NCBI GenBank assembly: GCA_002633005.1
Contig: NMRA01001051.1
Location: forward strand, 1 to 54,864
DNA from: Phoronis australis
Lineage: Eukaryota; Animalia; Phoronida
Direction of reading: 5' to 3'
Length of the DNA: 54,864 nt
The first letter of the stretch is position 1; every line of letters begins with the position of its first letter. The notes below the pieces were generated by a model, which worked only from the letters and a program-made list of their open reading frames with translations, searched no databases and had not been told where the DNA came from. Positions 1,965 to 40,613 of this stretch are shown piece after piece. The position numbers were made by a program, and so were the translations under genes.

Positions 1965-2132
1965 CTGGGCAATTCCCCCAACGCCTGTCATTGTCGTAAT
2001 TAGAAGTGATAGAACACCACGGTTGACTGTGGTCGGCCCCAGTGCATTCACTATACGCGACACCTTTGTATATAAACGGGAACTTGCATGATGAACCACC
2101 GCCATTCCCTCCGTATGTTGGTAGGTTAGTTT
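1965..2132 (-). CDS. Gene B exon: fibronectin type II domain (different frame from the ORF track)
   Basis: ttgcag|[56 protein letters not shown]|gtgaga; 42/55 aa identical to gene A FN2. Confidence 0.93.
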
Positions 2133-5100
2133 CTGCAAATGAAATGACGTAAAAAAGAACTGACCACCTAGAAGTTTCTCTATGACTTGTGACCTCCCAG
2201 TGAAATTCTTTGAAAAAAGGTAATAATTCTTAACACAAAATTAATCGTGAAATTTGGCAAATACAATGTATGTCAAATTATAAAGTATCCATGATAAAGA
2301 GCCTAAAAGTTGTGTGTAGAGATATTCAATCACTTTAACACATAGTAATTGCGACCAGGTAACAGTCACCTTTTAAGCAACAAATTTCAAACCAATAGAA
2401 AGCGTTTGAAAATTCCTTACTATGTTTGAAACAGCGGGATAATTTACGGCTTTGGGTAGAAACCGCTGAGCTACACGACTAACTTCGTAAGGTCGAACAC
2501 GATTTTTGATCAATGTTGCTAAACACTTTCTAATAGCAGAGCACACACACTGTAAGTAGCTTTAAGTATATTCACCGAAATCGCCCGTTCGCGTTCCCGT
2601 GAAAGGCCCGGAGACATTCGCTAAATATAAAAATGCAAAATGCTATCAACAAGACGTCATCTTTCTGCACACTCACCGAATGACCGCCTGAGATCGTTTT
2701 CCTCAACCGTTATGGAAGCACCCATATTATTACCCCATCCCGTATAGGAATCTGGCACACCATATCCGGAGCATCCACCCACGTTGAACTTGATGACTAT
2801 GTCCCCAGTTTGTTGCAGATCGCAAATGCCGTCCACTGAAATGGATAGACGAAATTTCAAGCTCCGTTCTTTTGAGATTTGAAAGGTGAAAGACTGTGCT
2901 TGCTCAATGGATCTCTGTTAGGCTGTCAGATTTTTTAATAAACGCGTCCCACTAGTGGCTGTTCGTGTCAATCTATGCTATTAAGTCCTAGCATATGCTT
3001 CAAGTAGTCGTTGTGTACATGTAAGTGGTTCACTTTGTCCTACGAGTCTGTAAAAGATCACATTTAATGACAAAGTCCGGCCTTATAATGACATAGTCTC
3101 ACTGAGCACTTCGGTATTCGACGAGATTCGGAATAACGCCACCTTATGCCGGCATTGCTCAAAATGAGAAGGTAGGAAGTGGCGCCAATCTCTCCTTAAT
3201 CTCTATACCAAAACACGCCACCAACATGTCATTATAAAGTTTGTCCGCAGCACATTTCTTTGAGACTTTTAGAAACTCTCCCCCCTCCAAGAGCAGAATA
3301 GATTCACCAGTGAATAATGAAAGCATTGGTGGTTTCCGTGGCACTGGACATTTATTTATTCTCCTAATATACACTGGTACGGTCGCGAAGTTAATAGCGA
3401 GAAATTAGCCACTCAAGCTCAAAAGATATCAATATGAAAGGGACGCAGTACTCTTCAAAATAGTTCTCACCTTGGCCTGGACGATAATCATCTCGCCCCG
3501 TGCCTTTGTACCACGCTAACTCTATTTTGCCTGGAGAGGAACACTCTTGGTCGTTAAAAGTAAAGTACCATCGGGAGCAACATCCGCCGCAGTTGTAACT
3601 CGAGCGAACGACGCCTCGGAATCTGACCCTCAATGATGTGTAAGCATACTGCTTCTTGAAGGTCTTCGTCTGAAACATTGCCATTGTTTTTCACAATTAG
3701 CACATCACCCGGAACACCTCGGTTATTTTCGTAACCTTAAACTCCCCTTTAAGGTGAACGGTTCAAGCTATGCGATGTCAATCATACGGTAAGTTACAGT
3801 GTATTTCACTAACAAGCTGGAGACAGTTTGGTCTCAGGGATGACGTTTGCACATGCGCAGATAACGTTTACCTTGGGAAATTTCAGGTTCCCTTGCGTTC
3901 CAAATGTTCATTTACATGTACAACAGGGCGTTATTTATGGATTTTCAATATGTCCTTAAGTTTCATTATCCTGCTCATTGTTTTACTTGTCTTTTCTGTT
4001 TAGAAAAAAATCTTCTTGTGGCATCAATACAATAACTATCTCCGTATCAAAGCTATTTATTCAGAGCCACAGACAACTATAACGTGAAAACTAATCAATT
4101 CAAATAACCCCGTTAACATCGAAAGCTTGTTCGTGTTTGCTATTACAATTTTCTGTTTCATGGTTTGGATATATGCTTATCAGCGGACGGATGGGAGTTA
4201 TAAAACAACGTTGGACGATTTGTCCCTTGAAATGTTTTCAGAGTTGAGAAACACGAAGGACATGCGGCGAGACACATTAGCTGGGGCAACGAAAGCAGTG
4301 CATTTTACCCAGTAATTCCACAATTCAAACTTACCGAGCAACCACTCATTACATTTCCATTTTACCGCGCTACGCTAAATAGAACAAGAGCATAAGCCTA
4401 CTTTCGAAACACCCTGGTACTGTACGTCAGAATGATTTTTAGAAACATGCGTTCTGATAAAATTGGCAGGCTAGGTTAGGATTAAAGTGTGAAGTTTTAG
4501 GATTGCTCGCGAAACGGTATTGCAAACCACACTGCCTTGTATGTTATGGACCCAGAAAGACGGAGAGCGCAGCTGAATACGAAGTGCGGAAGGAATTGTA
4601 CATATTTTGTCTTTGGTCTGAACTTACATGTACAAGGGATTGTCCTACCAAACATTGAACTGGACAGTATACAAACTAAGCATTATCAGGGCAGTAATTC
4701 ATTCGATTGTAGATCGAAGCATTCATTTTCGTGACTCAAACCAGGCAAATGAAACCTAATCCTGATTTCCATAAGGGCTTAGGTGTGTTTCTATCGGAAA
4801 TTTTACGACAAAAGGGTAGCCAGAGCGTCCCTTTATATAACAAACCCTGAAACCGCAAGGAGATTCTGTTAATCATTTTAAAGAAAAAAACACAATTCGC
4901 TCGATACTCAAATCTACAGCACCTTGCTTTGTATTCTCCAACGTGTGCTTCGTCAGCGTTTCCATATAATACCTGAGGGTACATGTATATGAATATGTTC
5001 TTGACGATAAACCAACAAAATTTCCTGAAAACACGGCATACGCACACATGAACGTAGCACCGAAATCATGAATACAGCTTCGGGCAATGACCTGTAAAGT

Positions 5101-8100
5101 ACGTTCACTGACGCTTGAAAACAGTCTCGCAATCACAAAATAAGGTTTAGACACCCAAACAGAATGTCTCCTGGACTCCTGTGATTAAGATTCATGTACA
5201 TGGCTCCGCGAAGAGCCCATACAGTGTAAGTCTTGATTGCAGTTGCCAAAACTCTGATTGCATCCAAGGAGCCGCGCTTTTAGAGTGCGTAATCGTGGTG
5301 CTCTTCAAAGTCTGTGTGATGGGTTTTCAGGTCAGTGAGCCTTCATAATAAGAGCTGACACGTTCATGTATGTCCATAGGCGCTTGCATCGTGTTGTTTC
5401 GGTAGCCTGAGCATACATGTATTCGTAAAATTCTCTCTCAAGACGGCCTTTCCCGAATTACAGGGTCAACACAAAAATCATGGGTGTCAACGCGTATTTC
5501 GATTTCAACTAAACACAAATGGTCGTCTGCCTCGTAAACCAACACTTGTGCATTATGTTCTTTAGTCCCCCTCATATTACCTCATATATAACCGGAAATG
5601 GTATTTTCAAACGAAAAAGTGAGACGTGATTTTGTAATATTGGGCATCTTTAAGTAATTATACCAAGCTACAACCTCTACTTTTTATTTCTCTAATATAT
5701 CGTCCCTTTGCCGAACTTATTTTCAGCGTCAACTTACTCGACGTTTAAGATATCGCCATCTGATGACTCGCCAAAAGACCTCAAACTATCGATGAGTTGT
5801 ATGTTAAAAGTAAATTTGATTTCCATCAGTCGTTCGAATAACGGGATGGGTAAAGAACCCGTGCTATTTTTGAACCCTGAATCTTCGTCAACAGTAAATC
5901 TCAAATAATTCGAGAACCGCAAGTCGAAGCAAAAAAACTTCATCCAGTAATCTGATACCACTAAATGAGGTCTACTAACGCACAAAATTTCAAAAAGATT
6001 TGTTGAAAGAAGTCAAGAGGACACGAGCAGTCACATAAAAATTGCAGGCATCGAAAAATCTCTATTGACTTAAAAACAGTAGGACTTTGAGAGATACATG
6101 GATGACACGACGATTCAAAGATGGCATCCAAACGCCACCATCGGTACTAATCCCGCCCCCTAAATAATGTAACCAATTAACAAAGGCGCTCTGATGGAGA
6201 GAACCTTGACGAGACGACTGAAGAAGGGAGTGGGATGAAAAAGTCAAAGACTGAAATTATTTTACGTAATATTCACATTGGAACTGTGCTCATGTTGCAA
6301 TCTAAAAACGCTGACATACTCACGCGACTGTTTAAACGTGCCAGATTCTAAATGGAGCATAGGGAAAATAGGGATTTTCTAAACGTACCGTATTGTTTCA
6401 GAAAGTTTATTTACCATTAGGTTTCCGTTGTCGGTTCCGCTTGCGTAGTTCGTGTAATAATAGTGTCGGATATTGGCAACCGGAACTTCGTCACATTCTT
6501 TAAAGGGAGCTGTATTTGAAAAGAAAACTGTTAGTGGAATGATGCCATTCGTTGAGATGCCACGAGTTGGTTTAAACAGTTGAACGATATAAGATATTAC
6601 TAAGGGACATTCTAACTGGTTTCTAATAAAAAGTCATCCCACTGCTGTTATATAGAAGCGTGATTTCTTAGTCTGACCGAAGAGTCACTCCCTCGAATCC
6701 GCCTATGGTACATGTAGCCTACATGTTAATTTACCTTAGGGCCTGTATCTTACCCACACAGACACCTGCGTTGTTGGTGCAGTCTTTCATGCAGGCGTGG
6801 TCTCCATCCGCGCAGTTGGTGTTGCTACATTCGGTGCTGGAATCCGCCTTGTTATTGGTGTTTCCCTGAGAACAACGAAGTTTTGACGCTACAATGTATG
6901 TGAATGTAATCAAACCACTTTAAATCAAACTTGAATTAAACTTCTTACCCTCTCTCGACACACTCACCGTCTCTCCGATTTTGTATGCAGCTTTAGAGGC
7001 TGGGGGATATTCTCCCACCGACTTCCTCAAAATTCGTAGGCAAACCTATACCTAAGCGGATTTTCCATCAAAAATGTGGTTTCCACTCCACAACATCCTT
7101 GCTAAAACAGTGTCTTAACGGACAGTGTGTTTACGTTTCCGAAACACTTAAGGACAAAATGAGGACATGGACAAAGCCCATGGGACGATGAAAAAACGTT
7201 TTCACAAATGCAAATTGCAATTAATTAGTGGCATATAAAGCGAAGAGCCCACTGCAGGTTGATAAGTTTCAGGAATGGTAATGCTCAAATATCTAAAAAA
7301 GAGATACCAAAAAATTAAAACACACCTAGTGTAAGCACGGTTTACACTAGCAAACGCTTCGTTTGCAAAAACGACTCGTGCCAGATCGAAATAAATTGGC
7401 AACAAAAAATGCCAAACCCGACAAACTGGTTTGCTAATTTGAAAACTACAGATTTTGGTAAGAAACCCAATGAACAAACAGCTAAAAATAGTGTGACAGC
7501 ACGTATAAAAATGGCAGCCTCCATGAGAGACTAGGGCTTAGATGCGAAACAGATCCTTATTCGAGAATCCGAGAATGCGAGAAACATCAAAATCTGCACA
7601 ACTCTCATCACCTGAGGCAAGCATGTTGCAGATTATGTTACAGTTCGTTTTTCCCCATACAATTGGCAATATCTGGCTTTTTAATCAATAAAAATAATTG
7701 CAATAATTGTCAAAAACACAACAATGGGTACACTTTAATAACTTCTTCGTTATCTCTTTGTTTACAATCTCTAAAGTTCCTAATAAAATATTACTATTAT
7801 TCTCGTTATATTTATCGGCACTCCTACACGTAATTCTGATGTTTAGTGATGGCGTGTCATGGCCGTAGATGGCGCAATTTGGACCCGGAAATAAGTATAG
7901 ACATGCTCTCGCGCTGGGTTCAAAATGTCATGATGATCTCAAAATGGGATGCTATATATTCCTATATCGTTCACATAATCGCTGTCGTCAAAATCATTAA
8001 CATTTTAATTAATTATTCTTGTGACTTATTCCTGTTAATTTTACACTTAGTACCTACGCTATATATAATAGTGATATGTAATTCCCACAGGGCAGATAAG

Positions 8101-8932
8101 CCAACGCTATTCCTTGGTTTACTTTTAAATCAGTTTGTAGTTTTTCCCAATCAGGTAATGAGCTGATGTTTATGAAGTTAAAACAATCAAGCTAAACCAG
8201 CAAAGTATTCCAAACTTTAGGTAGCAAGCCTAAGTCCGTTTGATGCTGTTTGGCTAAGTTTACGACTGGTTGCAACTTATATAGTAATAACACCAGAGAA
8301 CACAGTGCGATGAGTTTTCGAGTGTCAATTGAGATGCGTCATTTTTATGTTGGAAGATACATTCTCTAAAGGGTAAAAATGCGTCAAAACTTATTTATAC
8401 GAAATACCAATATTCTACATTTCTTTGAATCTTGAAACATTTTTTCATCGGATAACACGTGGTCACCTGCATGTTCTCATATCTGAGCAATGGCTGCAAA
8501 TATTTGGAGACCGATACAATCTCGATATAATAATTTCCAAGTACATACTCTGTCGGATTCAAATTTGCCTATTCGGATAGTGTTTCTAATATTTCCTCCC
8601 ATGGCAACACCATTTCCTCGAGACTCCATCTGGTGATAGCTTTCCTGGGACAAGTAACATAAACCATTATCTTCTTCGTAATAAGCAGAGACGCAAACTG
8701 TATTTCTCCTGCAGTACACAGCACATTCTAACTGGCTTCTAATACCAGTTAGTTTCCCATAGAATGACGGTGAAAACGAACCCGAAATATTCGCCACACT
8801 AGCGATAAATCCGGGCCTCAACACAGCGCATGTTTTGATTCTTTCTCCAAACAATGTTCCGGACCCAGAACCAAAAAATAGACAAGTGAAAACAGCTGCG
8901 GCACGAAGAGGCATGGTGGTACGTGCCGCCAT
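1965..8932 (-). CDS. Gene B (spliced, 6 exons seen, probably runs off the left edge): paralogue of gene A
   Basis: Exons 8932-8549, 6865-6754, 6509-6415, 3669-3471, 2835-2677, 2132-1965 join in frame with GT-AG introns (phases 0,1,0,1,1) and keep the gene A order. Confidence 0.9.
2677..2835 (-). CDS. Gene B exon: CTHRC1-like domain 1, last part
   Basis: [53 protein letters not shown]|gtgagt; one codon longer than the gene A exon. Confidence 0.9.
3471..3669 (-). CDS. Gene B exon: CTHRC1-like domain 1, middle part
   Basis: [50 protein letters not shown]...; 199 nt like gene A; 52/66 aa identical. Confidence 0.92.
6415..6509 (-). CDS. Gene B linker exon: N-terminal strand of CTHRC1-like domain 1 (not in ORF track)
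   Basis: ttttcaaatacag|A-PFKECDEVPVANIRHYYYTNYASGTDNGNLM|gtaaat; phase 1 to 0 bridges the neighbours; N.......G.DNG motif as in exons 26144-26226 and 21784-21890. Confidence 0.85.
6754..6865 (-). CDS. Gene B exon: short Cys-rich module
   Basis: tctcag|[38 protein letters not shown]|gtaaga; same length (112 nt) as the gene A exon. Confidence 0.9.
8549..8932 (-). CDS. Gene B exon 1: signal peptide plus PAN/Apple-like domain
   Basis: MAARTTMPLRAAAVFTCLFFGSGSG (hydrophobic leader) ...ECAVYCRRNTVCVSAYYEEDNGLCYLS...IRIGKFESDR|gtatgt. Confidence 0.85.
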
Positions 8933-11475: not shown

Positions 11476-11690
11476 GCTCCAACCGAGAAACAAAAGAGAT
11501 GACCTTTAACCAGGAAAGTCACCAGTCTTGATTTCTCCGAATTGCTGTGTCAACGCAAATAATAGGCAATACTTAATCACAAAGACATGACGGAATTTGT
11601 CGTTTGATCGTTCTGGTCTAACCATTTCATGTACATCCAACAATAACCTTAATTATCCGCTTTCGACCGTAAAATCAATCATGCCCTTTA

Positions 11691-11931
11691 CATGCGCGCA
11701 CCCAGGGGGCTCGGGGGACATTTCACGAAGCGGGCAAGAAGGTCTGCACCTGAGAGACAAAAAGTCCAAGAAAATGGGACTAAATAATCGCAAACGCTGA
11801 CTTCACAGTGGTGTTCCCGTTTTTTTTTGTTTTTTTTTTTTTTAATCCGCCCGCTCTTTTGTTAGCAAATGGTCCACAACGTCAGGAATTCGACCCCCCC
11901 CCCCCCATATTGAAGGCTGGGTGCGCGCATG
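11691..11931. mobile_element. Small element with perfect 15-bp TIR (CATGCGCGCACCCAG)
   Basis: catgcgcgcacccag ... ctgggtgcgcgcatg with internal G, T and C runs; no clean TSD seen. Confidence 0.6.
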
Positions 11932-18575: not shown

Positions 18576-18721
18576 CTAGTCGACGGGGAATACTTCGTTA
18601 ACCAACAAACGGCTAGTCGACTCCCAAGCTGTGTAAGCATCGTTGTAGCTATGTCCAGGACACGTCTGCAGGTATAATCTAATGTTATAGCTCCCTGCTG
18701 GAAGTTCGCAGTATCCGCCAA
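18576..18721 (-). CDS. Gene A terminal exon: CTHRC1-like domain 3, last part and stop
   Basis: ttacag|[48 protein letters not shown]; DA.T.W.S.SR...E motif, TAG stop. Confidence 0.9.
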
Positions 18722-21700: not shown

Positions 21701-24700
21701 GAGGTTTTCGCGTAAGTTAGAAAGATACATGGATGCGCTTTAAGAGCAGGCAGATTCACCTTCCGACTAGACTATTTACTCACAAACGCTCCGACATGCC
21801 CACTGTCGATTCCGTTGTTCACTGCCCACCACCACCACTGGTGAAAGTTGTACTCGGGAAGTCGCTGGACACTACCGTCACGTGTCACAACTGTTGGAAA
21901 AAATAAAATACAGTGTGCTAGGCATTCCCTACAAGTCATAATAAAAAATCGTTGGAGCGTGACGACGTAACATACCAGATACCCTCATGCTTCTCATAAT
22001 AGTCTATGTATATACCCTGTAAGGCTCATAAATTAGGAAATCAAAAATTACTGTGTCAGTGCATGTTAGCATTTTGCAGTCCGTGACAAATTTTTGACTA
22101 CATGGTCTTATTAATGCCAAACACAGACAAAAGAGGTAAAAGTACCACCAAAACATGTACTTACAGAATTTAAAACTCGATTTCGTTTAAACATCTGTAC
22201 CTGCACTGATGTCAAGGTCATAACGAATCTCCTCCACGATGATTTTACTTCTGGAGTTCCAGCCCGTGTAGCCATCCATTGAACCTGACTTTCTGGCAAT
22301 GTGAATCTGAATCGATCTCCGTCCTGCTGCGATGTTATCGCACAAGCCTTCAACTGCCAGAACAAACAGAAATCATAAATTTTGGGATAAAACTGTTTTA
22401 TATGTTTCACGGTGTCTTTAGAGTTCCAGAAAGGTTAGAAATCCTGTTGTCTAGAGGCATCTCAAGTTAAACGGACCCTTAGTTTTCTTATATCTTAGAG
22501 TCCGGAAAGACCACAGCGGTGGATGCAATGTTACTCGACTGGTGAAAGACGTTATACCTTTTACGTCTGATCATCAAACGTCTAGGGAAAACGCCGAATA
22601 AAGGACGAATGCTTAGTACTTTAGCATTGCAGTAAAAGGATCGAAATATGGAAAGTTTTGAATAGACGTTTTGGCAGATTTCACGTCGTATTTCGTTGAA
22701 GACATTGCTGATTGTTGTAAAATATTTTCTGCATTAAGGACTTACCTTTACCGAATTGCTATGGTAATAAATCTTGTCACGGTAGTCTATATTTTAAGTT
22801 CTGACTAATCTCTGAAGAACACACTAAGGAAACCGTGAGAGAACCACTAAAGTCGGACACCATGTCGCCACTGGCAGGCTAACAATATAATGGCTGTCAA
22901 TTTCAGCAAGTTTACTTTAGTAAATTTGCTGTTAGAAAGTATCTCTATTTTTAATAAAATTATCAGAGAATGTAGTTTGTGTTTAAGGAATGCATTTCTA
23001 TCAATCAGACCAAAGCAATGCCACTGCAGGGTAAAATGGCTCTTTATTCTCTTGGCGTGTTGCTACATGTAGCAGGTGTGCTTCCTGGGTTTAAATTACT
23101 AGTTTCTAAAGAGAAATGAAAATGACACGGTTGTAGATTTTTATTTCATTCAGGTGTTTTCGTGATGAAGAAAGATTTCATGGCATCAACTGTTACATGT
23201 ATAATCCTATAATGCGATCGTTCATATTGGTCCCACTCGGGGATTTAAACTGCACCCTCTCTCGGTAAAATCAAAACGAAACAACACTACAGAAACGAGA
23301 TGGCACTAGAAGCTGAATGCATTGCAACGGAACGGACAGTCATGTGTTTCTCAGATTTTTTTTCAAGTAAGACTTGAGGAACTTCGGATTTTTCGGTACT
23401 GTCAGTGCTTAAAGGCGAAGGCAACATTTTTGTGTAATTTTTAGCAAAATTAGATTCGTTGATTTTCCCAGATATACTTTTCCCTTAATTACACCTTTTT
23501 AAAATTAAATCAATTACTCGTCCTTTACTCCGGAAGTGACGTTTTGGGAGACAATAATTTTGCGCCATTTTCTTTTCATATAGTCAGAATGTGAGAAATG
23601 AAAAAACTTTGCCTTTGCCTTTAAGAAATAACTTCATGATGAATGCAGGAATAAACAGAGAACGAAACCTAAGCCAAGCAAGACGTCAACATCAAATTTC
23701 CTATTGTTGAAACTGACAACAAAAACGATTTGGCACTTGGTATATAGTAACTGTCAACACGTGTTCAGTAGAGATCAATAATATTTAACTCGGCAGGGTG
23801 CAACGAGCCTGCATTCGGAGGTCTAAAGGACGGCAATTAGTGTTTGCCAGCATGCCTGCAAAAATCATCATCGAACGACAGCCATTGCGAGGTGTCCAGA
23901 AACCCTCCTTCAGACGTTCAGGAAGTTAGAAGACAAAACATTTTTAACGTAAGGTATATTCACGTCCACTTACTTCCTCCGGTTCCATCATAGGTGTGGT
24001 CAACAACGTTGCCGTCCCAGTGGGCGTAAATGCCATCTATGAGGCCAGGACTAGTACAATCGTGGCCGTCAAACCGAATAAAGTAGCGCAGGGCGCCTTG
24101 TTGGTACATGTAAATATTGGAATGAAATAGAACGCGAATGGCAGTGTCGGATGCTCTTTTGTAGTAGTGGTACGTCTGAAATACAGCCGGAGACTTTGTG
24201 AGGAAAACAAATATAGCAATGCAAGTTCAAAGTATAGGATTACGGTTATCCCAAAATGGCACCCTAGCCTTTGCTTCTTAAATATTTACTTCGAAATAAT
24301 TAACAGTAGTAAAGAATTCTTTTCAATACAAAACTATTGTGAGTAAATGACGTTTTTACCAAACTGGGAAATGGTAATGATCGTTCGCTGCCTTTTTTTT
24401 TGGGGGGGCTGTTTAAAATTCGCTTCAATAACACTTACAGGCAGGGAGAAAAGTTGTCAATCATTCCACTTTGTTCGTCACTAGAGATGCATGTTACTGA
24501 TATTATCTGTAGTTCCTGCCGTTAGTTCCTCAATGCTGTTTGGACTATTGGTATAAATGACATTCCAAATATCTTCGTGAATATACGTTAAGAGGACTCA
24601 AACCCAGGGCTGATGATCTACCATACAAATCCTTAAAAACTTAAACACAGTAAGATAAAAGTGTCTTTTAAGTTTTTGCTTCTTAATATTTTCAAGAGGT

Positions 24701-27700
24701 CTCTACTAAACGTGTAGACCACATGCGAAGGGGGTAAATAGCAACTACTTTGTAAAGGCGATGACAGATATTTTCATTTCAATTGTATGAAATTGCATAA
24801 ACTAAGAATGAAATGTCAGTAGGTGGTGAGTCGAAGTTGAAGTAGCGCTAGTGACGCAATGGGCTTACCCGAAGAAATGCAAACAGTCATGAGTCCCTTA
24901 TTGAACTAACGCCACCATGATGGTGAAGAAACCCTTTCTGCTCTCAATTTATTCAGATGTGTTAGCATCAACCTATTGAATGTCGAGATCGGCAAATGGA
25001 CAATCGATATTCAATGTGTGGTGCTCACACAGAACCATCACATTATAACATCTGAGTAGGTCAAGGGCATTTCTTATACTAGCGCCACTTCGTGACCCTC
25101 GAGTCTCCCTTACACCTGACCACGGTTTCGTCCAACATCTTAAATGCGTAGAGTGAAAAGACAACTTCACATCCGTTTCCCAAGAAAGTTGACGGGAGAG
25201 TAAGAGATACATGTATTCAAACATCGTCGACGGACATCGACTGGATTGTCTAAAGATTACTATGATGCCATTCGCTAGGTATTCAAAATTAATAAAATCT
25301 CTAGCAGGGCCACCTGTGGTCGATTTTGGAGATCAGTAAAAAATGCCGATGATTGTAATGTTAATCCGGTCATTTTCAAGGCCAGACATGTCCACAACCT
25401 GGTTACTGCGTATACTGTTTGTTAGCCCTCGTTACTAACAAAGAACTATTGCAAAGTCTTACCTCCATTGCAATTGCAAATTTTTGGTCTCTCACCCCGG
25501 CATCGTCTGACCAGCGACACCGCGATTTTTACGATAAAAAGAATTTTGTGTCCAAACAACCCACCAAACTAATATTCCATGCGGATGGCAGCAGCGTTCC
25601 TGTATTATCGAATGCTGTGTTCTCCATTTACTCGCTTTTTCAAGATCAACTTGCATTTGGTGGTCGGACTGAATAGATTGCAATGTCATGGCCGGCTTGT
25701 TCACTCTACCTAGTTTTCCACCTGGCGAGTGCACGTGCGCTGCGCATGCTTAACTCGTAACCGTAGACTTACGCATTGCAAGAGCTAGCGGCTAGTTCAG
25801 TCAACTGTTGACGTATTTCAATTGCGTGGCCTGAGTTGTCACCTCTGCTATTGTTCTATGGGTCGCGGAAAAGGCAAAAATTGTTAATACAAAAATCAAA
25901 TCTAATTCGTAATGTTACCCTTTCCGCGCACTTTGCTATATGCAGTTTGATTTTCCAAACGCGATTGATTTCTGTAAATTAGATTTAATTTTTATGAATT
26001 GGGATTGATTTTCCAAGCAGGATTGATTTTTACGAATTAGGTTTGATTCTTCTATTAACTATTTCTTGCCGTTTCCACAGACAATATCGTTCACTTGAAG
26101 CAGACATCTCAGCTCACAACTTTCCGTCTGCGGTGGTGCTTACATAGATATGACCGTTGTCTGCTCCATTCACACCAGTCCACGTGTATTGTTTGATGTT
26201 GAATCTGGATAATTTCGGACAAGTTCCTAAAATGAAAATTCACGTTATTCGATTAAAGTTTTAACTTAAAAGTTGTACGGAAACGTTGTTCTAAATGTGA
26301 ATGTATCAATCGTGAAATGCGAATTAAACTATGGTTAATTGCCTAAGCGCACTTAGACACGTACCTCACAAAGCGGGGTAAGCGGGATCAGGGGAGGCGG
26401 CGGGGCAAGAAATGTGGGGACGAGGGGAAACGGTAACGGGAATAGAAGGAGAGGGGCGAACGGAGAAGACACAGGGTGTGCGCTGTAAAACTTTGAGGTC
26501 TGCAATGTAAATGTACATAAAATTTGATGCAGCTACATGTAGCTGGAGGGTTAACCCACGGGTTGCTCTTGAAAAAATGGACGAAAACTGGATGAGATAA
26601 TTGTCCCCGTAAACCAACCCGCCTGTTTAGCGCGGAGATTCACAGTCAAAATACGAACAATAAGAAAAACAAGTGACCAAGAATGACTTTAAAATTAAAA
26701 AATAAAATAAAAAAATAATTGCAGGCGGTATGATACACGTTGTACCAGACGTGCGCAGGCCTCGCATGTGAGCCCATTTCACTGATCACCTGGAAATATT
26801 TTTATACTTTATTAATATATGGTTAAAAACGAGCTGAGGAGCTAGAAACCTGGCTCAAGGGTTTAGCAGTGTGACCTGGTGGGACTCGAACCCTAGACCT
26901 CGAGTAAAGAAAGCGGGCACGTATCAACCAGGCCACACTGCCTCCTCTAAAAAGTAAATAGTAGCAGCCTTTTAATTTTGAAAGTCAATGCATTATAAGA
27001 CAAATAAAAGAATAGGTTTTCTTCAGCATAACGGCTAAACCACGAGCATTAAAGTGTTAATCGATTGGAACCGGTTAGTTGCAGTGTGGCTTAGGCTCGC
27101 TTAGGCGTTGGGTTAACAAAACACCCTCATGGTGGTGTAGAAGTGTCTCATGCTACCAACCCTACCCTACATCGTAGCAAAATTTTGCCGTCAGTGAGGC
27201 TTTTGGTTGGCTTCAAGGTAATTCCTTCTACTCGTAAAACTGTGAAGTGTTCAGGCATTTATTGCCACACTAATGCGTGGGAGTTGCCCCGCACCACCCC
27301 TGATCTCCCCGCACTCCCCAACCTTGTGCTCTTCATTAGTGAGATCTCTCTCATTCCTCTAGCCGTCCCCCGATGGTTTGATATTGTCCGGCTACATCCT
27401 TTGTAGCGCCGTGACGTGTCTGGAGTGACGCTGCCACTTTCAACGCTATGAAAGCGGGAAGTTATGATGCGGACGCGATTAAGCATGACTTTGCGATGTC
27501 ACGAATAATGATGATGTACTGAAAGTTTTCATGCCGTGACGGTTGAGTGGCACCTTTATTAAACAGCATAGCCTGTTGCGCCAGATTGGAGTTGAGTGGA
27601 ATGTCCATGTGCTTGGACTTGCCATTTTAACCACTCTAGCTGAACAAGGCATCACACATGTAGATAACGAAATGTGCAGCAAAACATATAGCTCTAATCA

Positions 27701-30700
27701 ACGGTGTTGTTAAATGCTCCTTACCCGGGCACTGTCCCCATCTGCCATCGCTGTCGTAATTAGAAGTGGTCGCGCACCACGGTTGATTGTGATCCGCCTC
27801 AGTACACGTACTGTACGATATGCCTTTGTAAACGAAGGGGAACGTGCACGATGAACCGCCGGCATTTCCACCGTAAGTTGGCAGGTTAGTATCTGTGAAA
27901 AGTGATATGTCATTACGTTTGGTGAAGTACATTAAGGTGAAACGAGTTTTGACATAATTGGATTATTTACAATTAAATTGGCTAAGCTTGCATTGCAATC
28001 ACGTTTTTCCTGTTTGTTTTTGAATTGTTGAGTATCAGATCAGCTATGAGGAGAGCATTCATGAAGCAGAGCTCACTATCATGGTGTCACATATACATGT
28101 GAATGGTTGGTGTCGGTTCAAAACCGTTTTAGCCGGATGATGGCACGACAAGCACGCGAGCCCAGACCCGAACAATTTAATTAGACTCGCGTTTTTCAAC
28201 AATGATGATTTCCATTGGTCTTCGGGAGGTTTTAAAGACATGCTTCCCTGCTCTCCTTGTTTTAACGTTAACAGTAGCGGTACGTTTTACACATGGAGAA
28301 ATTGTTGGCAGCCACTTCGCGCTATTTGCTGTGAGTTCATACATGTACCACGTGACTGCGTTGTGCGACAAGGACAAGAGCCACTCACCGAAAGATCGTC
28401 TCAGGTCATTTTCTTCTACAGTCATGGACACACCGTTGCCACCCCAGCCCGTCTGACCATCCACCACATTGTATCCACTGCATGCACCGATACGGAACTT
28501 GACCACGATGTCGCCGGAGATTGGTAAATCACAGATACCATCAACTGAAATTGCGAAAGCAGACAGATAAAAGATGTAAAATACAGAACAATGGCTGCGT
28601 GGGTACCATTGTCTTACCGATCGAACTGTTGACGTAACGAGCTACAGGAGCTAACAATAATCCGTCCAAAATTCTTTCAGTTGCAACACAGATGCAAACA
28701 TATTAGACTCTTACCGTTGGCAGGGCGATAATCATCCCTTGCTACGCCTTTGTACCACACTATCTCAATCTTCCCGGGCGAGGAACATTCTTGATCGTTG
28801 AAAGTGAAGTACCAACGATTGCAGCAACCTCCGCAGTTATACCCGGCTCGAATGATACCTCGGAAACGAACCCTCAATGAGGTGAAAGAGTATTGTTTCT
28901 TGAAAGTTCTTGTCTGAAACATAGAGGTAGTACGTGTCCATAGTGCGCACAACAGCGGTAGCCTCAGGCAAGCTAGTTTTTCCCAACAGTGGGGGGCATT
29001 GGATTACACTTTTGACAGAGAGTCACTAGAACATCAGAATGCTAGTCCTCTTAAAAAGAGGCCCACTTGTAGCGAGCTTCCATGAAAATGTCCCGGATGA
29101 TAAGGTTTTATTTTCAAAAGATCATCTTTTTGTTAATTATACTTCTGGACAACGTCGAATTTCGTCATTCTTTCGGCGCAAAAAACATGTCTAAATTACC
29201 ATTTCTTTTCCACTAGAATCCGTTTCAGTTCTACTTAATCCGCGACTGGTGTTTGTGCACTACGGGTTGTCGAAATCTTGGCATTACTGTGCACACCCTG
29301 CAGTAAGCGGCTTCATGCAATAATGCCACGCTACTCTCTGATTAAAGTTGGACTGAAACACTATTTTGATCACATTTGTTTTAGACCAAAACAGAATTAG
29401 CTCGTACGTAAATAAAGATATGTTGATCTGACGTTTCGGTTTATAACTTTAAACCATTCTCAAGGCATCAGTTCACATACTCTAACAGGCTACACAGGTG
29501 CAAAACGTGACGCTTACCTGTGCAGTTTTTTAAACTGTGTCACCTGTTTAATTATGTGAACTGTTGCCTTGAGAATGGTTTAAAGTAATGAAAAGGAAGG
29601 AGACATCGGATCAACATGTCTTTATTTACGTACGCGCTAATTTTAAAGTTCGTGAAAGACTATATTATTGCACCGGCTTTTCGTCTAAACTTCCTGACAT
29701 TCCGACAAGAAGTTTATCCAAGCTTGGCATAATCCGACAAAGTTGTCTCGAGGTGTCTTCAGCTTAGTTTATTTTAAAAACTTCAGTAAGCTCCGCGGGG
29801 TTTTACGAACAACTGAATTTTAACTCATTAAGATCGAAGTAGTTAAACACACGCCATGTTGTCACAAATTAACAGAAGTTACAAAATAAATATTAAAAAC
29901 CTTCTGCAAAGTCATTCATAAAGAATTTGTTAAATGCACGACACTTTTCATTGTTTACAGTCTTTATTCCCTTACGTTCGTACCTTCGGAACAAAACTCT
30001 ACTCTCAACTGAACATAAATACAGTAACTGACATAGCGACATAATTAAAAGACACACGATATTTCGAAACATACTTGTCTCATTCTCAAGTGAAGATAAA
30101 ATGACGCAGTAATGCCACCACAGAGTATAAGCTGATGACACACACAGTGAAACACGGCGGGTGTGAAATACTGCAAAGAATGACTAATGAAGGGGGGTAA
30201 CAGGAAAGTCACGCAAACAAGTGTAACGTGCGGCGCGACCCTGTTTGCAGCTCATTGGCAAAACAGGCTTCTCAAAAGCAAGTAAAAGGGACTCTAATAC
30301 TTTCAAACGCAGCACATCTTGCTCCACGTAGCGAATTGACGTGTTTTCCACAATTTCTTGAGGGTGATTGATGCTCACACACGGAATTCCGTGTGTCCTT
30401 CATCATGTTTCCGCAAGACCACTTTTCAGTAGGTGGCTCTGTGTCAGAGGGTATTTATAGTACTGATCATTCGGGAATCACAGCTGTCCAATCAGCTATC
30501 AGCGGACCTCGGATTTCACAGATTAGATACGAGTGCCCAAACAAGGGGTGACCTTTCGTCATCCCGCCGCTTTGCAATTACATGTACTAGCCTTCCTCAA
30601 CGCACCAAAGTGTGTTTTTTCGAACTGACAAAGAGGCAAATTCAGGAACTGAAATAACTCCAGGTTCACTTTGTCGACTTAATGATGATATTTTGGGACG

Positions 30701-33700
30701 TTCAAGCCAATAAGGCGTGCAAGCCAATAAGGCGCACAAGCCAAAAAGGCGTGCAAGCCAATAAGGCGTGCAAGCCAATAAGGCGAGCAAGCCAATAAGG
30801 CGTGCAAGCCAATAAGTCAAACGGTTTGCCAAACACTTGGAGGGAAAGCATTGAGTACTCGGCTTCGCCAAAGGGAATAGGGAAAGGAATGTTTGACCAC
30901 GGTCCAGTATCAAATCTTTTTACTAGAAATCGAACTCGAGTTGCAATTTACGTTCTAATTGGATTCAAATTAAAATAACTATCTATTATTTGTGCTTAAG
31001 AATATTTTGGTTCACAGTGGCTGATTGATTGTGTAATAATTTTTGCACTTGGTGACTCCATTGAGAATTAAAGCCGTGAGTTGGATCTCGAACTCGAAAT
31101 CTGTAGTTTTTACTAGAAATCTAGAGATGGTACTCCGGCTCAGATCCTAGAATTATCAAGTACAAACTTGGGCTAGAAATTCATTTGCGTAATCCATAAT
31201 ATCTTCTAGCACAGAAATATAAACGCTTGCCTTGAGTTTGCACTGAAATGAGTAGTCAAATATACGAATTTTTAATTGTCAAATTCAAACTCAACCCAAT
31301 CAAGCATGTGAAAGAGAGAATATTGCGCAATCGGTGAACTCAATGATCGAGTCCCAATGTGAATTAAGAAAATCAACGAGACATTAAGTATCAGTCCACG
31401 GATCCACCGACCACTGTACAGCCAACAAGCGGCAAGGTGGGGGGTCAGCCATTCAGATCCATGTTTAGTCTGATAAATCACATTAGGGATGAGAGAAAAT
31501 GGGTGAAGTATGACACCACAAAGTTTGGTGGTTTAGGAGATACAAGGGAAGTGTTCTGGGGGGCAAAATGAGGCAATTTCTTGGTGTGGAATGAGTCATT
31601 TTTGACCAAAATTTCTACTCCAGTTTCTGCTTCAAACAGAATCGTTTCTGAANTAACGTAACCCGGTGAAAACTGAGGATAATTCCGACAAACGAGATTA
31701 GCCCACGCCTATCACAGTTACGGTTGCGGAAGTGCCACAAGGGAAAGGCCAATATGGTGGAAGTTATTTGCACGAGTACCATTGCAGCATATTCTTTGTG
31801 ATACAGGTGTACATGTACATGTAGGTGTAAATAATCGCACCACCGCTTATTACACCTAAAAACCTATCAAATCGCCCAACCTTTTATAAAGGTACCAATG
31901 CAACATGCGCGTCAAACAACCAAGAATATGTGAAATAAAAAACAGAATCACAAGCTTGAATACCACTGTTTATGAGCAATATCCGATGTCTGATTATTGG
32001 CAATACTATTTCGCGCTGCCATCCACGTCCATAGTATCAGGTTTGACTGTTGATTCATATTCATGCTATCAAATACAAGTTGTGAAGAAATAGCAATTGG
32101 TTAGTAACTTTCTTCTGTAAATAAAGCTTTTAAGTTTATAAAAGTGGGCTATTATTGGAACCAGTCTCTCCGACCCTCGCATTGCTACGGTGATGACCGA
32201 AGATGTGTTCCGTAGACGCATCATGTGAAACTCGCCAAACGTAAGATCACGCAGGCCTCCGCGAGACATTTCCACGTGCTACAAGCGAACCACCTAGTCA
32301 CTCTAGCTTTTCTCGCGAATGTCTTAGTACGTTTATGGAATGCAGACCTATTCTAGCAAGCTACATTTCGTTCTCGCTCGCTAGAACAGATAACCAACAT
32401 CACACAGGAGATAGGCTGCAAGTTAGCGACTGGGGGGGCATTAATTGCTTTACGCTGTGATGTTTTATGCATGGCTCCATACGAATAAGGTAACAAACAG
32501 TAATGTTGCTTACAAACAGGTCATTGTTAATCACGCAGGAAGCCAAAAGGTGGTGAACTGCTTTTTGTCTCCGACACATGAAGATGTTAAAAACAGGAGT
32601 CTATATTCATCAGCACCACCTACATTGTAGTAAACATAAAGTCTCAAAGAGACATGGAACGCGAAAGCTCGTCAAAAACAATTCCTGACGAAAGTATAGT
32701 CGCAACGTCTACTACAGGTTTATTCTCTCCCCATGTGCGGGAATTTCTAGAAAAATTTTAAAAAATCATGAATTTTGAAATACGCAATATGTATGGAAAA
32801 ACTCAGTAGTCACCACAGAGTTTCTTATCTCCCTCCCATTTATGATAAATCCACGTATGCGCTGACAGTCATTTGACAGCTGACGGACAAAATTGATATG
32901 AACGGCAGATTATCATGTCTAATCGCACTTCGAACCTGAGGTCGACACAACAATATGAGCCAAGCTAGTGAAGCATGGGATTTCCTAAAAATGGTTACGA
33001 GTGCATTTTAAAATATATTTGAATACTACATTACCTTTGAAACTAATTCCAAACAATTGGGACTTACATCAACTACCTCTTAATCGGACTGACTGCTGCT
33101 TGAAGTCTCCATTGTTTTGTTTCAAAGGTCAGAGGTCACATTTCCCATATACGGCAAATTTTCTACGCTTATATCTTGTCATATTAAATAAGGAGACGTG
33201 TTTTGCATTGTGGGGGAAAATCGACGAAGTGACGAACAGTTAGCAGATCAGATTTTTTTTGAAATTCGAAACTAAAACTTAAAAATTTTTACTGTAAACG
33301 GTGAACGGCTCGAATTCTGTTTCAGTGTCGGAGAACCACTTTGAATAATGCAATTTAGGCAGATTTTCGCGTTCCAGGCCTCTTTAAGGGCGTGTTGCTT
33401 ACATGAGGTATGAAAGACTTACCAACGCAGACTCCTACGTTGTTAGTGCAGTCTTTCACACAGGCGTGGCCTCCGTCTGCGCAATTGGCGTTCGTGCATT
33501 CAGTGCTTGAGTCAGCCTTGTTGTTGACGTTGTCCTGGAAAGAGAGACAGTACATGTATGTCTACCTCTGAAATTTTCATGCATGAATATTTTCTGTGAA
33601 CGCGTCAATCATGTTTATGACCTTTAAAAAAACTGTCACAATTCTCAGAGAACTGTAGTTGGTCGTTGCATATAGTATCATTCCCTTCGCATCTCAAAAC

Positions 33701-39700: not shown

Positions 39701-40613
39701 TTTTATGCAACTGGGCCCTGTTCAAATAGTTTTGAGCTTCATATCAAATTGTGTGTGTATTGCTATCCTTCAATTTTGTTTAAAGTGACTAATAGCCCCG
39801 TGGGCTAGGTGTTCAAGTAACACTGGTCATAGTAATAATCATATCTTCTTTCATCTTCCATTATTCATTCAAAGTTATTTTTAAAAGTGGGCGGGTCTTC
39901 GTGCATGCCTTGTTACGTATTGCGACAGTGGTTTGAGTACCCATAATGCATGGGGCAGTTGCTACATGTACTTTCTACTAAGAATATTTTAAGTGGCTGC
40001 TCGCCACTAACACTAGACGTTAAACCAAAAAATAATATTTAATTCAGTTAACCTTGTTGTAGTGCTAAATGAGAGGCATATTCGGGCTTAAGTCTCGATG
40101 GAACGATCTTACCTCCAACGTCCTTTGATATACTGGGTAATTAAAATCAGGTAGACAGAGCCCCTTTAAGCACAAACTGTACAGTTTTGCCTGTCAAGTG
40201 GTCATCATAGTAGATTGCAAACACACCTGATTTACATTCTAACCTGATTTGATATGAAGTTGTCAATTCTTATCTTGCTTCCAAGATTTTCTCCCTCTTT
40301 CCCCGCTCTTCCCTGCGACTCCATATCGTGATAACTGCTCTGAGATAAGTAGCATAGTCCTGTATTGCCTTCGTAGTAAGCCGAGGTGCAATCTACCTGT
40401 CTCCTGCAGTAAAGCGCGCATTCCATTTCACTTCTCGTGCCAGTTCGTTTCGCAAAGTATGACGGTGAAAATGACGCAGTTGTATTTGTAACCGTACTCG
40501 TGAATCCTAGCGAAAGGGCAGAACATGTTTGAATTTCTTCTGAAAATTGCGTGTCTGACAGACAAAATTTAACGAGGCTTAAAAAAAAACGTTGTCCAAA
40601 TGGACAAAAACAT
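18576..40613 (-). CDS. Gene A (spliced, 11 exons found): secreted PAN/Apple - Cys-rich - CTHRC1_C - FN2 - CTHRC1_C - CTHRC1_C mosaic protein; frameshift in exon 1 and one linker exon not found
   Basis: Exons 40613-40244, 33534-33423, 28913-28715, 28544-28389, 27892-27725, 26226-26144, 24175-23974, 22353-22201, 21890-21784, 19699-19474, 18721-18576 have AG/GT boundaries. Phases are compatible throughout except 33423 to 28913. The first five exons have clear paralogues in gene B. Confidence 0.85.
19474..19699 (-). CDS. Gene A exon: CTHRC1-like domain 3, middle part
   Basis: ccgcag|[24 protein letters not shown]...[25 protein letters not shown]...NQHHASI|gtgagt; phase 0 to 1. Confidence 0.92.
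19926..20250. mobile_element. Truncated copy of the 885-1326 MITE family
   Basis: acagtcccaaataggcactcagccaagtttccaaaatctactgc... colinear with about 900-1220. Confidence 0.7.
21784..21890 (-). CDS. Gene A exon: N-terminal strand of CTHRC1-like domain 3
   Basis: caacag|[36 protein letters not shown]|gtgagt; N..Q..W...N.GID.G motif; phase 1 to 0. Confidence 0.85.
22201..22353 (-). CDS. Gene A exon: CTHRC1-like domain 2, last part
   Basis: ggcag|[51 protein letters not shown]|gtacag; EGLC and TGWNS.S.IIVEE motifs; phase 1 to 1. Confidence 0.88.
23409..23624. mobile_element. Short TTAA-flanked MITE
   Basis: ttaa-aggcgaaggcaacatttt ... aaaactttgcctttgcct-ttaa. Confidence 0.7.
23974..24175 (-). 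CDS. Gene A exon: CTHRC1-like domain 2, middle part (different frame from the ORF track)
   Basis: tttcag|[67 protein letters not shown]|gtaagt; phase 0 to 1. Confidence 0.85.
26144..26226 (-). CDS. Gene A exon: N-terminal strand of CTHRC1-like domain 2 (not in ORF track)
   Basis: ttttag|[28 protein letters not shown]|gtaagc; resembles CTHRC1 NWKQC.W..LN.G.D.G.I; phase 1 to 0. Confidence 0.85.
26700..26946 (-). mobile_element. tRNA-derived SINE-like repeat, copy 1
   Basis: Minus strand starts with A-box-like TGGCCTGGTTG and B-box GGTTCGAGTCC (26882-26892); the body aligns with 38935-39155. Confidence 0.75.
27725..27892 (-). CDS. Gene A exon: fibronectin type II domain
   Basis: [51 protein letters not shown]; classic FN2 C.FPF.Y.G..Y..CT......WCATT.NYD.D..WG.C; phase 1 to 1. 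Confidence 0.95.
28389..28544 (-). CDS. Gene A exon: CTHRC1 C-terminal-like domain 1, last part
   Basis: [52 protein letters not shown]; resembles CTHRC1 VEGLC...G.C...D..TGW...I.EE; phase 1 to 1, donor gtgagt. Confidence 0.9.
28715..28913 (-). CDS. Gene A exon: CTHRC1 C-terminal-like domain 1, middle part
   Basis: tttcag|[50 protein letters not shown]...|gtaaga; matches the CTHRC1 signature LRV.F.G.LR..C...CC.RWYFTFNG.EC..P..IE. Confidence 0.92.
29395..29642. repeat. About 250-bp foldback (inverted repeat), probably Penelope-like element termini
   Basis: aattagctcgtacgtaaataaagatatgttgatc...ctttaaaccattctcaaggca pairs with tgccttgagaatggtttaaag...gatcaacatgtctttatttacgtacgcgctaatt. Confidence 0.8.
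30703..30816. repeat. 17-bp minisatellite (CAAGCCAATAAGGCGTG) x about 6.7
   Basis: Direct head-to-tail units with few substitutions and no spacers. Confidence 0.95.
31653..31653. other. Single N (ambiguous base or collapsed assembly gap)
   Basis: Only N in the window. Confidence 0.95.
32644..33387. mobile_element. TTAA-flanked MITE, copy 2, about 35 bp from the gene A Cys-rich exon donor
   Basis: Ends tcaaagagacatggaacgcgaaa and tttcgcgttccaggcctctttaa are imperfect inverted repeats. Confidence 0.78.
33423..33534 (-). CDS. Gene A exon: short Cys-rich module
   Basis: ttccag|[38 protein letters not shown]|gtaagt; 112 nt, phase 0 to 1; 30/37 aa identical to exon 6754-6865. Confidence 0.9.
36624..36676. 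repeat. Perfect 19-bp stem hairpin capped by a C(TTCG)G loop
   Basis: attattccgcgtatcgacc-tcgaccttcggtctc-ggtcgatacgcggaataat. Confidence 0.85.
36900..39560 (+). mobile_element. Heavily decayed non-LTR retrotransposon RT region (CR1/L2- or RTE-X-like, clade uncertain) in intron 1 of gene A
   Basis: Fragments such as [21 protein letters not shown]....[47 protein letters not shown] and HIGTGRF occur in correct RT/C-terminal order. Boundaries are approximate. Confidence 0.8.
38935..39155 (-). mobile_element. tRNA-derived SINE-like repeat, copy 2, nested in the intronic LINE
   Basis: Shares cgcatgtg.gcccatt..a.tgatcacctgga and gagctagaaacctg.ctcaagggtttagcagt with copy 1; B box degenerate. Confidence 0.72.
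40244..40613 (-). CDS. Gene A exon 1: signal peptide plus PAN/Apple-like domain (frameshifted at A9, 40581-40589)
   Basis: Removing one base from the A9 run gives [37 protein letters not shown]...[27 protein letters not shown]...[10 protein letters not shown]. The C-x3-C-x5-C...C-Y-L pattern is PAN/Apple-like. Donor CAG|GTTAGA (phase 0) aligns with the gene B donor. Confidence 0.8.

Follow-up and report, generated by a model that had tools for sequence, protein, structure and literature searches.

We found that two tandem paralogues of Phoronis australis, copy A and copy B, both on the minus strand of the analysed stretch of 54,864 nucleotides (the window), encode collagen-free, likely secreted proteins, and we tentatively favour, at a little below an even chance, a reading in which three unlike heads in one chain would form a C1q/TNF-type trimeric head with a lectin-like recognition surface. 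The head domain is the C-terminal domain of CTHRC1 (PF25815 by Pfam), a protein that has drawn extensive study in wound repair, fibrosis and cancer. Copy B has the order (signal peptide)-PAN-Cys module-CTHRC1_C-FN2-CTHRC1_C-CTHRC1_C, and the visible part of copy A runs signal peptide-PAN-Cys-CTHRC1_C-FN2 up to the window edge. A preliminary description had assembled this three-head architecture from minus-strand exons and proposed that it was duplicated in tandem. The exon model was supported by GT-AG exon ends and by Pfam matches to the domains exon by exon; of the duplication, the two paralogues stand, with three heads and the full architecture seen in copy B only.

Copy A begins with an exon at 8549..8932 (minus strand, like all exons below) that carries the ATG, a hydrophobic start resembling a signal peptide by eye, and a PAN/apple domain (PAN_1, 27.6 bits). 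The Cys-module exon (6754..6865, phase 0-1) is 81% identical to its counterpart in B and matches no Pfam family. Head 1 comprises a 95-nt first exon of phase 1-0 (6415..6509), which aligns with Lingula and with the relative P0016 at the same position and matches a Lingula profile weakly (E 0.085), followed by middle (3471..3669) and last (2677..2835) exons with CTHRC1_C scores of 48.8 and 27.8 bits. An FN2 exon of phase 1-1 (1965..2132; fn2, 65.2 bits) follows. Heads 2 and 3 of copy A are unseen because the model ends at the open phase-1 donor of this exon (1965) and no further family exon was found in positions 1-1960; the gene presumably continues past the window's left edge.

The PAN/apple exon of copy B (40244..40554; PAN_1, 27.4 bits; 53% identical to A) begins at 40554 without an ATG. 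Its signal peptide is represented by a candidate exon only (coding part 40875..40923, phase-1 donor), the more hydrophobic of two ATG-to-donor candidates, which lies 5' of the PAN exon with an acceptor-like site before it and falls outside the interval first described (1965..40613). The Cys-module exon (33423..33534) matches the Lingula profile. Head 1 is represented by its middle exon (28715..28913; CTHRC1_C, 50.1 bits) and its last exon (28389..28544; E 4.6e-4, under the cut-off, 73% identical to A), and an FN2 exon of phase 1-1 (27725..27892; fn2, 68.4 bits) separates heads 1 and 2. Head 2 consists of a first exon recognized by the Lingula profile (26144..26226) and a middle exon (23974..24175; CTHRC1_C, 29.2 bits), each flanked on either side by joints in RNA reads that resemble a paralogue, and a last exon (22201..22353; CTHRC1_C, 30.3 bits) whose first 30 nt form the loose end of six RNA reads at 23974. 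The linker and the start of head 3 share one exon (21784..21890; Lingula profile E 4.8e-6), which is followed by the middle exon (19474..19699; CTHRC1_C, 50.9 bits) and the last exon with the stop codon (18576..18721; CTHRC1_C, E 1.3e-5), ending where the Lingula proteins end. A phase-0 intron lies near the start of every head; it may or may not share its position with the conserved intron that Leclere et al. 2020 (PMC7058181) report close to where the Cthrc1 domain begins.

Above the curated Pfam cut-offs we recovered PAN_1 in 2/2 exons, fn2 in 2/2 and CTHRC1_C in six of eight half-domain exons, the remaining two scoring 20.9 and 25.9 bits (E 5e-4 and 1e-5). A profile made from four Lingula proteins only, searched against 3026 six-frame pieces of the window, placed in its top ranks exactly 15 modelled exons (E 3e-17 to 0.13; both FN2 exons and the signal-peptide candidate of B are not among these), with the next match at E 4.6 and no match at E≤5 in the reversed window. 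The profile matched no window exons beyond copies A and B. The FN2 exon of B finds its best PDB sequence matches in repeats of MMP-9, MMP-2 and fibronectin, which bind gelatin. Inspection by eye led us to reject a membrane anchor encoded by reading through the FN2 exon, since the two copies have unrelated tails there and each has a strong donor. The Cys module has five cysteines in its own exon; in copy A and the relatives, the following exon supplies a sixth at its beginning.

A counterpart of the 95-nt exon of A (6509-6415) was sought in the B intron 28914-33422 and not found, and joining the Cys exon of B directly to 28913 shifts the frame. The single N at 31653..31653, in the intron expected to hold this phase 1-0 exon, looks like a gap in the assembly to judge by the DNA contigs, of which 12 diverge from the window behind 31652 and another fits only from 31654. 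The short exon was probably lost in this gap. The sixth cysteine of B's Cys module would fall in the missing exon. Alternatively, copy B may be a pseudogene that truly lacks the exon, with working members elsewhere, which would be compatible with the other readings considered here and which we regard as improbable. The fruitless search of the intron and the scarcity of RNA reads closely matching B would fit such a pseudogene, but the gap sits in the very intron of the missing exon, the remaining eleven family exons all have open frames and undamaged splice sites, and pN lies far below pS against A (0.19 and 0.71 over the five shared exons, which are under purifying selection).

The longest Gly-X-Y run in either gene model spans two to three triplets. 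The six frames of the window contain only three runs of four triplets, all of them outside the modelled exons and their frames, and a hidden collagen exon was sought in these frames and not found. The collagen-free character asserted at the outset, which an unnoticed Gly-X-Y exon would have overturned, was thus upheld. Copy A is unbroken from ATG to FN2 without collagen; copy B sequence inside the assembly gap is unreadable.

Copy B is colinear with unnamed Lingula anatina proteins of the form PAN-Cys-CTHRC1_C x3, aligning with full-length Lingula-type members over 638-689 columns at 24-30% identity (E down to 3e-71). Its closest relatives are LOC106162620, LOC106178942, LOC106174493, LOC106180315, LOC106175114 and LOC106165752 of Lingula, together with P0016, an unnamed 611-aa protein from an intact single ORF on a 2632-nt contig. 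What they have in common with B is PAN, followed by three CTHRC1_C domains in tandem with conserved linkers, and the absence of collagen. They also have a signal peptide, for which B offers a candidate exon, and all except LOC106165752 have the six-Cys module; unlike B, they have no FN2, and no family name or function is assigned to them. PAN followed by the six-Cys module is present in the window genes, as in the Lingula family, by Pfam, alignments and profile, and the three tandem heads with conserved linkers and no collagen are found in copy B, heads 2-3 of A lying outside the view. B and the Lingula proteins have head 2-3 linkers of conserved length and sequence. The PAN-Cys-three CTHRC1_C core occurs at about ten Lingula loci, some partial, which are annotated but unnamed and two of which are adjacent on one contig, and family members are 24-50% identical. 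The architecture had been put forward as unrecognized and lineage-specific. It indeed stands under no named family, its Lingula counterparts being unnamed, whereas lineage specificity contracts to FN2, a local addition to a core also found in Lingula. The literature searched yielded one relevant paper, Leclere et al. 2020, and no description of the architecture; an account of Lingula immunity outside this search (Gerdol et al. 2018) may mention the genes. Collagen-free Cthrc1-domain proteins of Lingula and Phoronis appear in Leclere et al. 2020 in a table footnote only (PMC7058181, Table S3), and the same table gives eight collagen-bearing Cthrc1 genes for Lingula and at least three for Phoronis.

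From a library with one protein per 50% cluster, the best 150 of 917 matches were listed, and 33 of these 150, long or multi-domain ones, entered the Pfam scan. Collagen-free multi-domain proteins among the matches listed had three domains in 13/25 cases, two in 9/25 (several of them fragments) and five, eight or nine in one each, a count biased towards three because the search profile itself had three domains; proteins with a collagen run had a single CTHRC1 domain in 41 of 48. FN2 among tandem CTHRC1_C domains occurred elsewhere in 1/41 scanned proteins, Oscarella pearsei P0021 (collagen, two CTHRC1_C, FN2, two CTHRC1_C), which shares FN2 with B but keeps collagen, has four domains and lacks PAN. 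The pairing probably arose independently, since the P0021 domains fall outside the window-plus-Lingula group in the tree of heads. That tree separated the family from single domains with support of 100/96 and, as to the grouping by position that a shared triplication would leave, recovered a head 1 group (86/92) and B head 3 together with four Lingula head 3 domains (94/88), head 2 forming no clear group; a clade of window heads only was just rejected (p-AU 0.0445). Placement of the window head 1 was sensitive to sampling, as a smaller tree set it with canonical domains (92/87) and wider sampling moved it into the head-1 group. The heads of this family lie on long branches, and the outgroup knowingly contained no collagen-bearing lophophorate Cthrc1.

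The preliminary description gave no reason for exactly three domains; the likely reason, judging from predicted structures, is a single-chain trimer of C1q/TNF type. The proteins folded were the relatives P0016 and Lingula P0001, both without FN2, and not the window's own spliced protein. The AlphaFold2 model of P0016 (88-row alignment) had a pLDDT of 80.5 and a pTM of 0.79 (five models, 78.6-80.5), and the best five of 969 aligned chains were all engineered single-chain trimers: C1q (5hzf and 5hkj), adiponectin (4dou), Cbln1 (5kca) and APRIL-BAFF-BAFF (4zch), at Z 21.3-25.8 and rmsd 3.4-3.8 over 335-351 residues. The next match, at Z 7.7, paired the PAN part with apple domains of kallikrein and factor XI. 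The trimers, although the best structural match to the predicted three-domain head, are artificial constructs with 6-8% sequence identity. Foldseek gave TM scores by target of 0.54-0.57 for four of the five and 0.27 for 5kca, an 807-residue fusion, with other tandem jelly-roll chains (1a6c, 4ind, reelin) at 0.14-0.20, and the poorer P0001 model (pLDDT 55) returned the same kind of top matches. AlphaFold2 has seen C1q/TNF trimers, these single-chain constructs included, and the structural match may therefore be partly memory. PDB sequence searches gave a single match at E 0.54 and none with P0016, so that the CTHRC1 head found no solved counterpart by sequence, and the protein atlas offered no usable match to P0001. 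Folding the P0016 heads as three separate chains gave a score of 0.50 against 0.25 for the best control, rated as weak support, with at least 91% contact agreement between runs and partner pLDDT of at least 82; in the benchmark, the mark was reached by 51/78 solved complexes and 2/108 mismatched pairs, and passes at ≤0.60 comprised 5/78 solved complexes and all four mismatches that passed. Together, these models suggest that the three heads quite probably form a single-chain C1q/TNF-type trimer. Among single-domain structures, the TNF-like lectins PLTL and BC2L-C (Z 6.5-6.8) are some of the closest, but matches at Z <8 may reflect a common fold only.

If the heads form such a trimer, recognition has a slightly better than even chance of being their main role. 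Once the head had been tripled, with three heads held covalently in one chain, a collagen stalk would no longer be needed for trimerization, and each subunit would have been free to change, leaving three binding faces that are not equivalent. An N-terminal arm would be formed by PAN plus the Cys module. The FN2 exon appears to have entered the linker between heads 1 and 2 by exon shuffling and would anchor the protein on collagen or gelatin. In this way the protein would link collagenous matrix to a ligand, either glycan or protein, on microbes, mucus or cells. The earlier proposal of an extracellular recognition or matrix family holds as a reading, with a putative ligand, and fits the Lingula expansion and sequence divergence; about ten Lingula loci, at least three likely copies here and 24-50% identity make a recognition-like pattern.

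The Cthrc1 family (Leclere et al. 2020, PMC7058181; PF25815 with PF01391) has the same C-terminal domain, is likely secreted and shows lineage-specific tandem expansion. Copy B differs in having no collagen stalk, three domains rather than one, and PAN, Cys module and FN2 added, and the trimer predicted here lies within one chain, unlike that of Cthrc1. As described in PMC6835236 and PMC5519582, bivalve smultiC1q proteins (for example HcC1qDC6) are likewise secreted, mostly of three tandem jelly-rolls, collagen-free and clustered in tandem, and one member binds bacteria, LPS and peptidoglycan (PMC5519582). They are another sequence family, the Pfam C1q domain finding no match in the window exons or scanned relatives, and no mention of PAN or apple domains in them was found in the passages searched. 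By analogy, smultiC1q proteins may model how this CTHRC1-head family works. It is quite possible, though somewhat less likely than not, that lophophorates have evolved an undescribed, expanded family of natural single-chain CTHRC1-head heterotrimers in which covalent triplication replaced the collagen stalk, with asymmetric lectin-like heads parallel to bivalve three-domain C1q, to which exon shuffling (FN2) would add tethers.

The single-chain head could instead have a structural or assembly function in extracellular matrix, such as that of body wall, tube or shell, with FN2 binding collagen, the head binding other matrix proteins and no recognition of foreign surfaces. FN2 of MMP/fibronectin type suits such a role, as do the regulation of collagen deposition by vertebrate Cthrc1 and the modelling of its head on collagen VIII and X NC1 domains (PMC7058181). 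We consider it unlikely: FN2 is absent from most family members, expansion and fast divergence fit recognition at least equally, and the passages searched in a Lingula shell-proteome paper do not name the family, the term 'CTHRC1' being absent from its main text. A role in modulating signals, as in vertebrate CTHRC1, is rather doubtful; here the fixed trimeric head would stabilize Wnt-Frizzled-Ror complexes or act on TGF-beta signalling while PAN and FN2 localize the protein. The long-branched heads are unlike a conserved signalling ligand, and Lingula and Phoronis retain collagen-bearing Cthrc1 genes (eight and at least three), with which a signalling role could stay, even though the domain is a true PF25815 member with Wnt/PCP and TGF-beta links reviewed in PMC7058181. 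Least compatible with the models is trimerization between chains, like with like, into a cross-linked network or trimeric rod. The weak pass in the split-chain test and the 55-residue FN2 in one linker would allow it, but the pTM of 0.79, the rigid match over 335-351 residues to single-chain trimers and the conserved head 2-3 linker between B and Lingula make it very improbable.

Should the single-chain recognition head prove true, the family offers a collagen-free protein, monomeric by prediction, for structural and ligand work on the CTHRC1 head, and may illustrate one way for a collagen-dependent trimer to lose its collagen. The C1q-like assignment of that head rested on ab initio models (PMC7058181), and a natural three-head chain with a model that superposes on single-chain C1q/TNF trimers lends it support of a new kind. 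The analysis also defines an animal family present in databases only as 'uncharacterized'.

RNA reads support the proposed junctions in part. They contain the splice from FN2 to head 2 and another two of the predicted joints; among the 15 of 176 joints listed, copy B showed none linking PAN to the Cys module, the Cys module to head 1, head 1 to FN2 or head 2 to head 3. The reads with the FN2-head-2 splice apparently come from a further paralogue, not B itself. Reads at least 95% alike to the window numbered 0/55 in RNA set X5 and 5/34 in X6, at low depth; mean RNA depth in the PAN bin of B was 0-0.09, and 20-kb RNA mapping was dominated by repeats. That B is really two genes, one for its 5' and one for its 3' half, was disfavoured in view of the RNA splice from FN2 to head 2 and of the intact single ORFs of FN2-less family members. 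DNA depth on the head-2 exons was about 100-900, compared with mostly 30-120 in the intron, with up to eight contigs carrying variants, which hints at more copies but yields no copy number. The Phoronis australis genome likely holds at least three copies of the family.

The stretch is animal genomic DNA (39% G+C) with spliced genes and repeats, and it carries two paralogous minus-strand genes arranged head to tail. Copy A (8932 to 1965) has six exons whose in-frame splice yields 372 residues, comprising a hydrophobic N-terminus followed by PAN, a Cys module, a single CTHRC1 C-terminal domain (hereafter a head) split over three exons, and FN2. Its 3' end is an open phase-1 donor after FN2, and no family exons were found between its last exon and the window edge. 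Copy B (minus strand, 40554 to 18576) has eleven family exons, and the splice of the nine from 28913 onward gives 480 residues and a stop, spanning head 1 minus its first exon, FN2, head 2 and head 3. A candidate signal-peptide exon of copy B (40923–40875, minus strand) and its exons 26226–26144 and 21890–21784 were chosen among frame-compatible candidates, which makes their agreement in frame a product of the selection; the latter two short exons are backed by homology and RNA.

Several checks bear on these models. PAN_1, CTHRC1_C and fn2 were each detected exon by exon with Pfam, in which the Cys module matched no family. With a profile of four Lingula anatina proteins, the 15 expected exons ranked first among 3026 six-frame pieces of the window, and the reversed window gave zero matches at E≤5. 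In a blastn comparison of copies A and B, five exons and four repeat pieces aligned, and no other intron sequence did. Simple Nei–Gojobori counts gave pN 0.19 versus pS 0.71 between the copies, and dN 0.14 and dS 1.5 for the FN2 exon. The preliminary description of a tandem mosaic running SP-PAN-Cys-CTHRC1_C-FN2-CTHRC1_C-CTHRC1_C holds for the presence of two paralogues and, by Pfam and the Lingula profile, for the order in copy B (its SP exon being a candidate); copy A is visible only as far as FN2. Its statement that the proteins lack collagen stands, with no collagen run in either model. We conclude that the feature is real.

Head 1 of copy A opens with a 95-nt exon, the counterpart of which was not found in the 4.5-kb intron of copy B; omitting it shifts the frame there. 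The sole N of the window (31653) falls in that intron, and contigs from the DNA sequencing run X1 differ from the window on either side of it. Most likely, the missing exon sits in an assembly gap; the alternative is that copy B truly lost the opening exon of head 1.

The window genes belong to an unnamed family built from the CTHRC1 head, with named members here confined to lophophorates. When the four middle exons were used as a profile, its best matches were three L. anatina proteins of around 600 residues, and across searches Lingula contributed about ten loci, some partial, labelled 'uncharacterized' or 'CTHRC1-like'. Full-length Lingula relatives scanned with Pfam contain PAN_1 and three CTHRC1_C domains, and neither collagen nor FN2 was detected in the full-length relatives scanned. 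Copy B is colinear with the Lingula proteins over its whole length, and the match takes in the Cys module, the two short exons and the linker joining heads 2 and 3. Relative to them, FN2 is cleanly inserted after head 1 and before head 2; the FN2 exon is an addition in this lineage. P0016, an unnamed 611-residue relative, has the same layout in a single ORF on a 2632-nt contig, which, in a family rich in introns, suggests a spliced transcript. A bryozoan fragment (P0027) has two tandem domains. Judged by these relatives, the DNA probably comes from a lophophorate.

In a tree of 33 domains, which left out P0014, P0015, P0167, P0168, P0023, P0027, P0034 and most single domains, 22 family domains split off, at 100/96, from single domains and a sponge protein. 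Clustering by position had moderate support for heads 1 and for most heads 3, the branching of head 2 was not resolved, and independent triplication in this genome was just barely rejected (p-AU 0.0445). The metagenomic three-domain protein P0023 fell within the family group in a quick tree. The Lingula genes LOC106178941 (P0169) and LOC106178942 (P0002) have consecutive locus numbers and lie on a contig of identical length, so the family is probably tandem there too.

Three RNA runs compared over 21600–41500 gave low exon depth, and repeats dominated the joints (15 of 176 listed). A narrower comparison over 23900–26247 was clear. Most reads there fell within the two exons and had the orientation that a conventional stranded library gives for a minus-strand transcript. 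At acceptor 26226, 18 reads from run X5 and 8 from X6 ran on into sequence resembling the end of an FN2 exon; matched by hand, this extension agreed with copy B at 23/30 letters and copy A at 20/30, so these reads appear to derive from a third member of the family. The joint of 24175 with the exon upstream was crossed by two reads, whose 36 letters beyond it are precisely those predicted. Six reads ran past 23974, and the 30 letters that follow are the same as the first 30 of exon 22353. Of the predicted junctions, RNA covers FN2–head 2 and two head 2 joints; none was seen upstream of FN2 or downstream of head 2. Reads were mostly less than 95% alike to the window (55/55 in X5, 29/34 in X6), and X1 DNA contigs share some of the variants they carry, indicating splicing of the family rather than expression of copy B itself; a diverged population or sibling species is an alternative source.

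Structure models were made for two relatives standing in for the window proteins. That of P0001 from Lingula was weak (pLDDT 55, four alignment rows) and that of P0016 good (pLDDT 80.5, pTM 0.79), with an uneven alignment depth of 88 rows for head 3 and 16 and 9 for heads 1 and 2. Both retrieved engineered single-chain trimers first. Five of these aligned to the P0016 model with Z 21.3–25.8 and rmsd 3.4–3.8 over 335–351 residues (VIA-align), followed by apple domains on the PAN part (Z 7.7); single TNF-like domains (Pgp3 and the lectins PLTL and BC2L-C) reached Z 7.0. Modelled as three separate chains, the P0016 heads scored 0.50 versus 0.25 for the best control, with 91% contact agreement and partner pLDDT of at least 82, a result rated weak because only 5/78 solved complexes scored ≤0.60, a range that also contained every one of the 4 mismatched pairs that passed. 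Such models know C1q/TNF trimers well, so memory may contribute to the match.

C1q/TNF trimers have both termini at the base; a position below the head would follow for PAN, for the Cys module and for the inserted FN2, leaving the binding faces free. With three heads in one chain, a collagen stalk is predicted to be dispensable and the subunits free to diverge. Three-domain proteins made up 13/25 collagen-free matches, a count biased by the three-domain query, and this excess fits the predicted stalk replacement. Our tentative leading reading is a putative lectin-like recognition protein tethered by FN2 to collagenous matrix. A plain matrix component is a less probable role, a putative Wnt or TGF-beta modulator is improbable, and assembly between chains more improbable still.

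In Leclere et al. 2020 (PMC7058181), Cthrc1 is defined by collagen plus a C-terminal domain modelled on C1q, with three chains gathered by a short collagen helix; the window proteins share this head yet fall outside that definition. Bivalve three-domain C1q proteins (PMC6835236, PMC10672478, PMC5519582) are a functional parallel from a different sequence family. A literature search, with subscription papers beyond reach, found no description of PAN combined with three CTHRC1 heads, whether FN2 is present or absent.

Other proteins combine the head differently. P0021 from the sponge Oscarella pearsei has collagen, two CTHRC1_C, FN2 and two further CTHRC1_C, a second pairing of FN2 with tandem heads that probably arose independently. 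The unnamed P0037 has a RING and a TRAF zinc finger followed by CTHRC1_C where TRAF proteins have their trimeric domain, and P0028 (Branchiostoma floridae), with five folate-receptor domains and two CTHRC1_C, may be a fused gene model. Unnamed metagenomic proteins without animal context carry nine (P0165), eight (P0018) or three (P0023 and P0026) CTHRC1_C-like domains in tandem.

A LINE-type retroelement with broken ORFs occupies 46665–48034 (plus strand), its second piece matching zf-RVT, and a 17-nt tandem repeat (at least seven overlapping copies listed) lies at 30682–30834 inside a copy B intron. Nested inverted repeats with arms of 43–91 nt (13873–15596, between the genes, and 29395–29642, within) are probably non-autonomous transposons. 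Three dispersed repeat pairs (10736–11476 and 32647–33388; 895–1195 and 19943–20235; 26763–26926 and 38964–39133) are 68–82% alike, and several dispersed repeats had high depth in both DNA and RNA reads.
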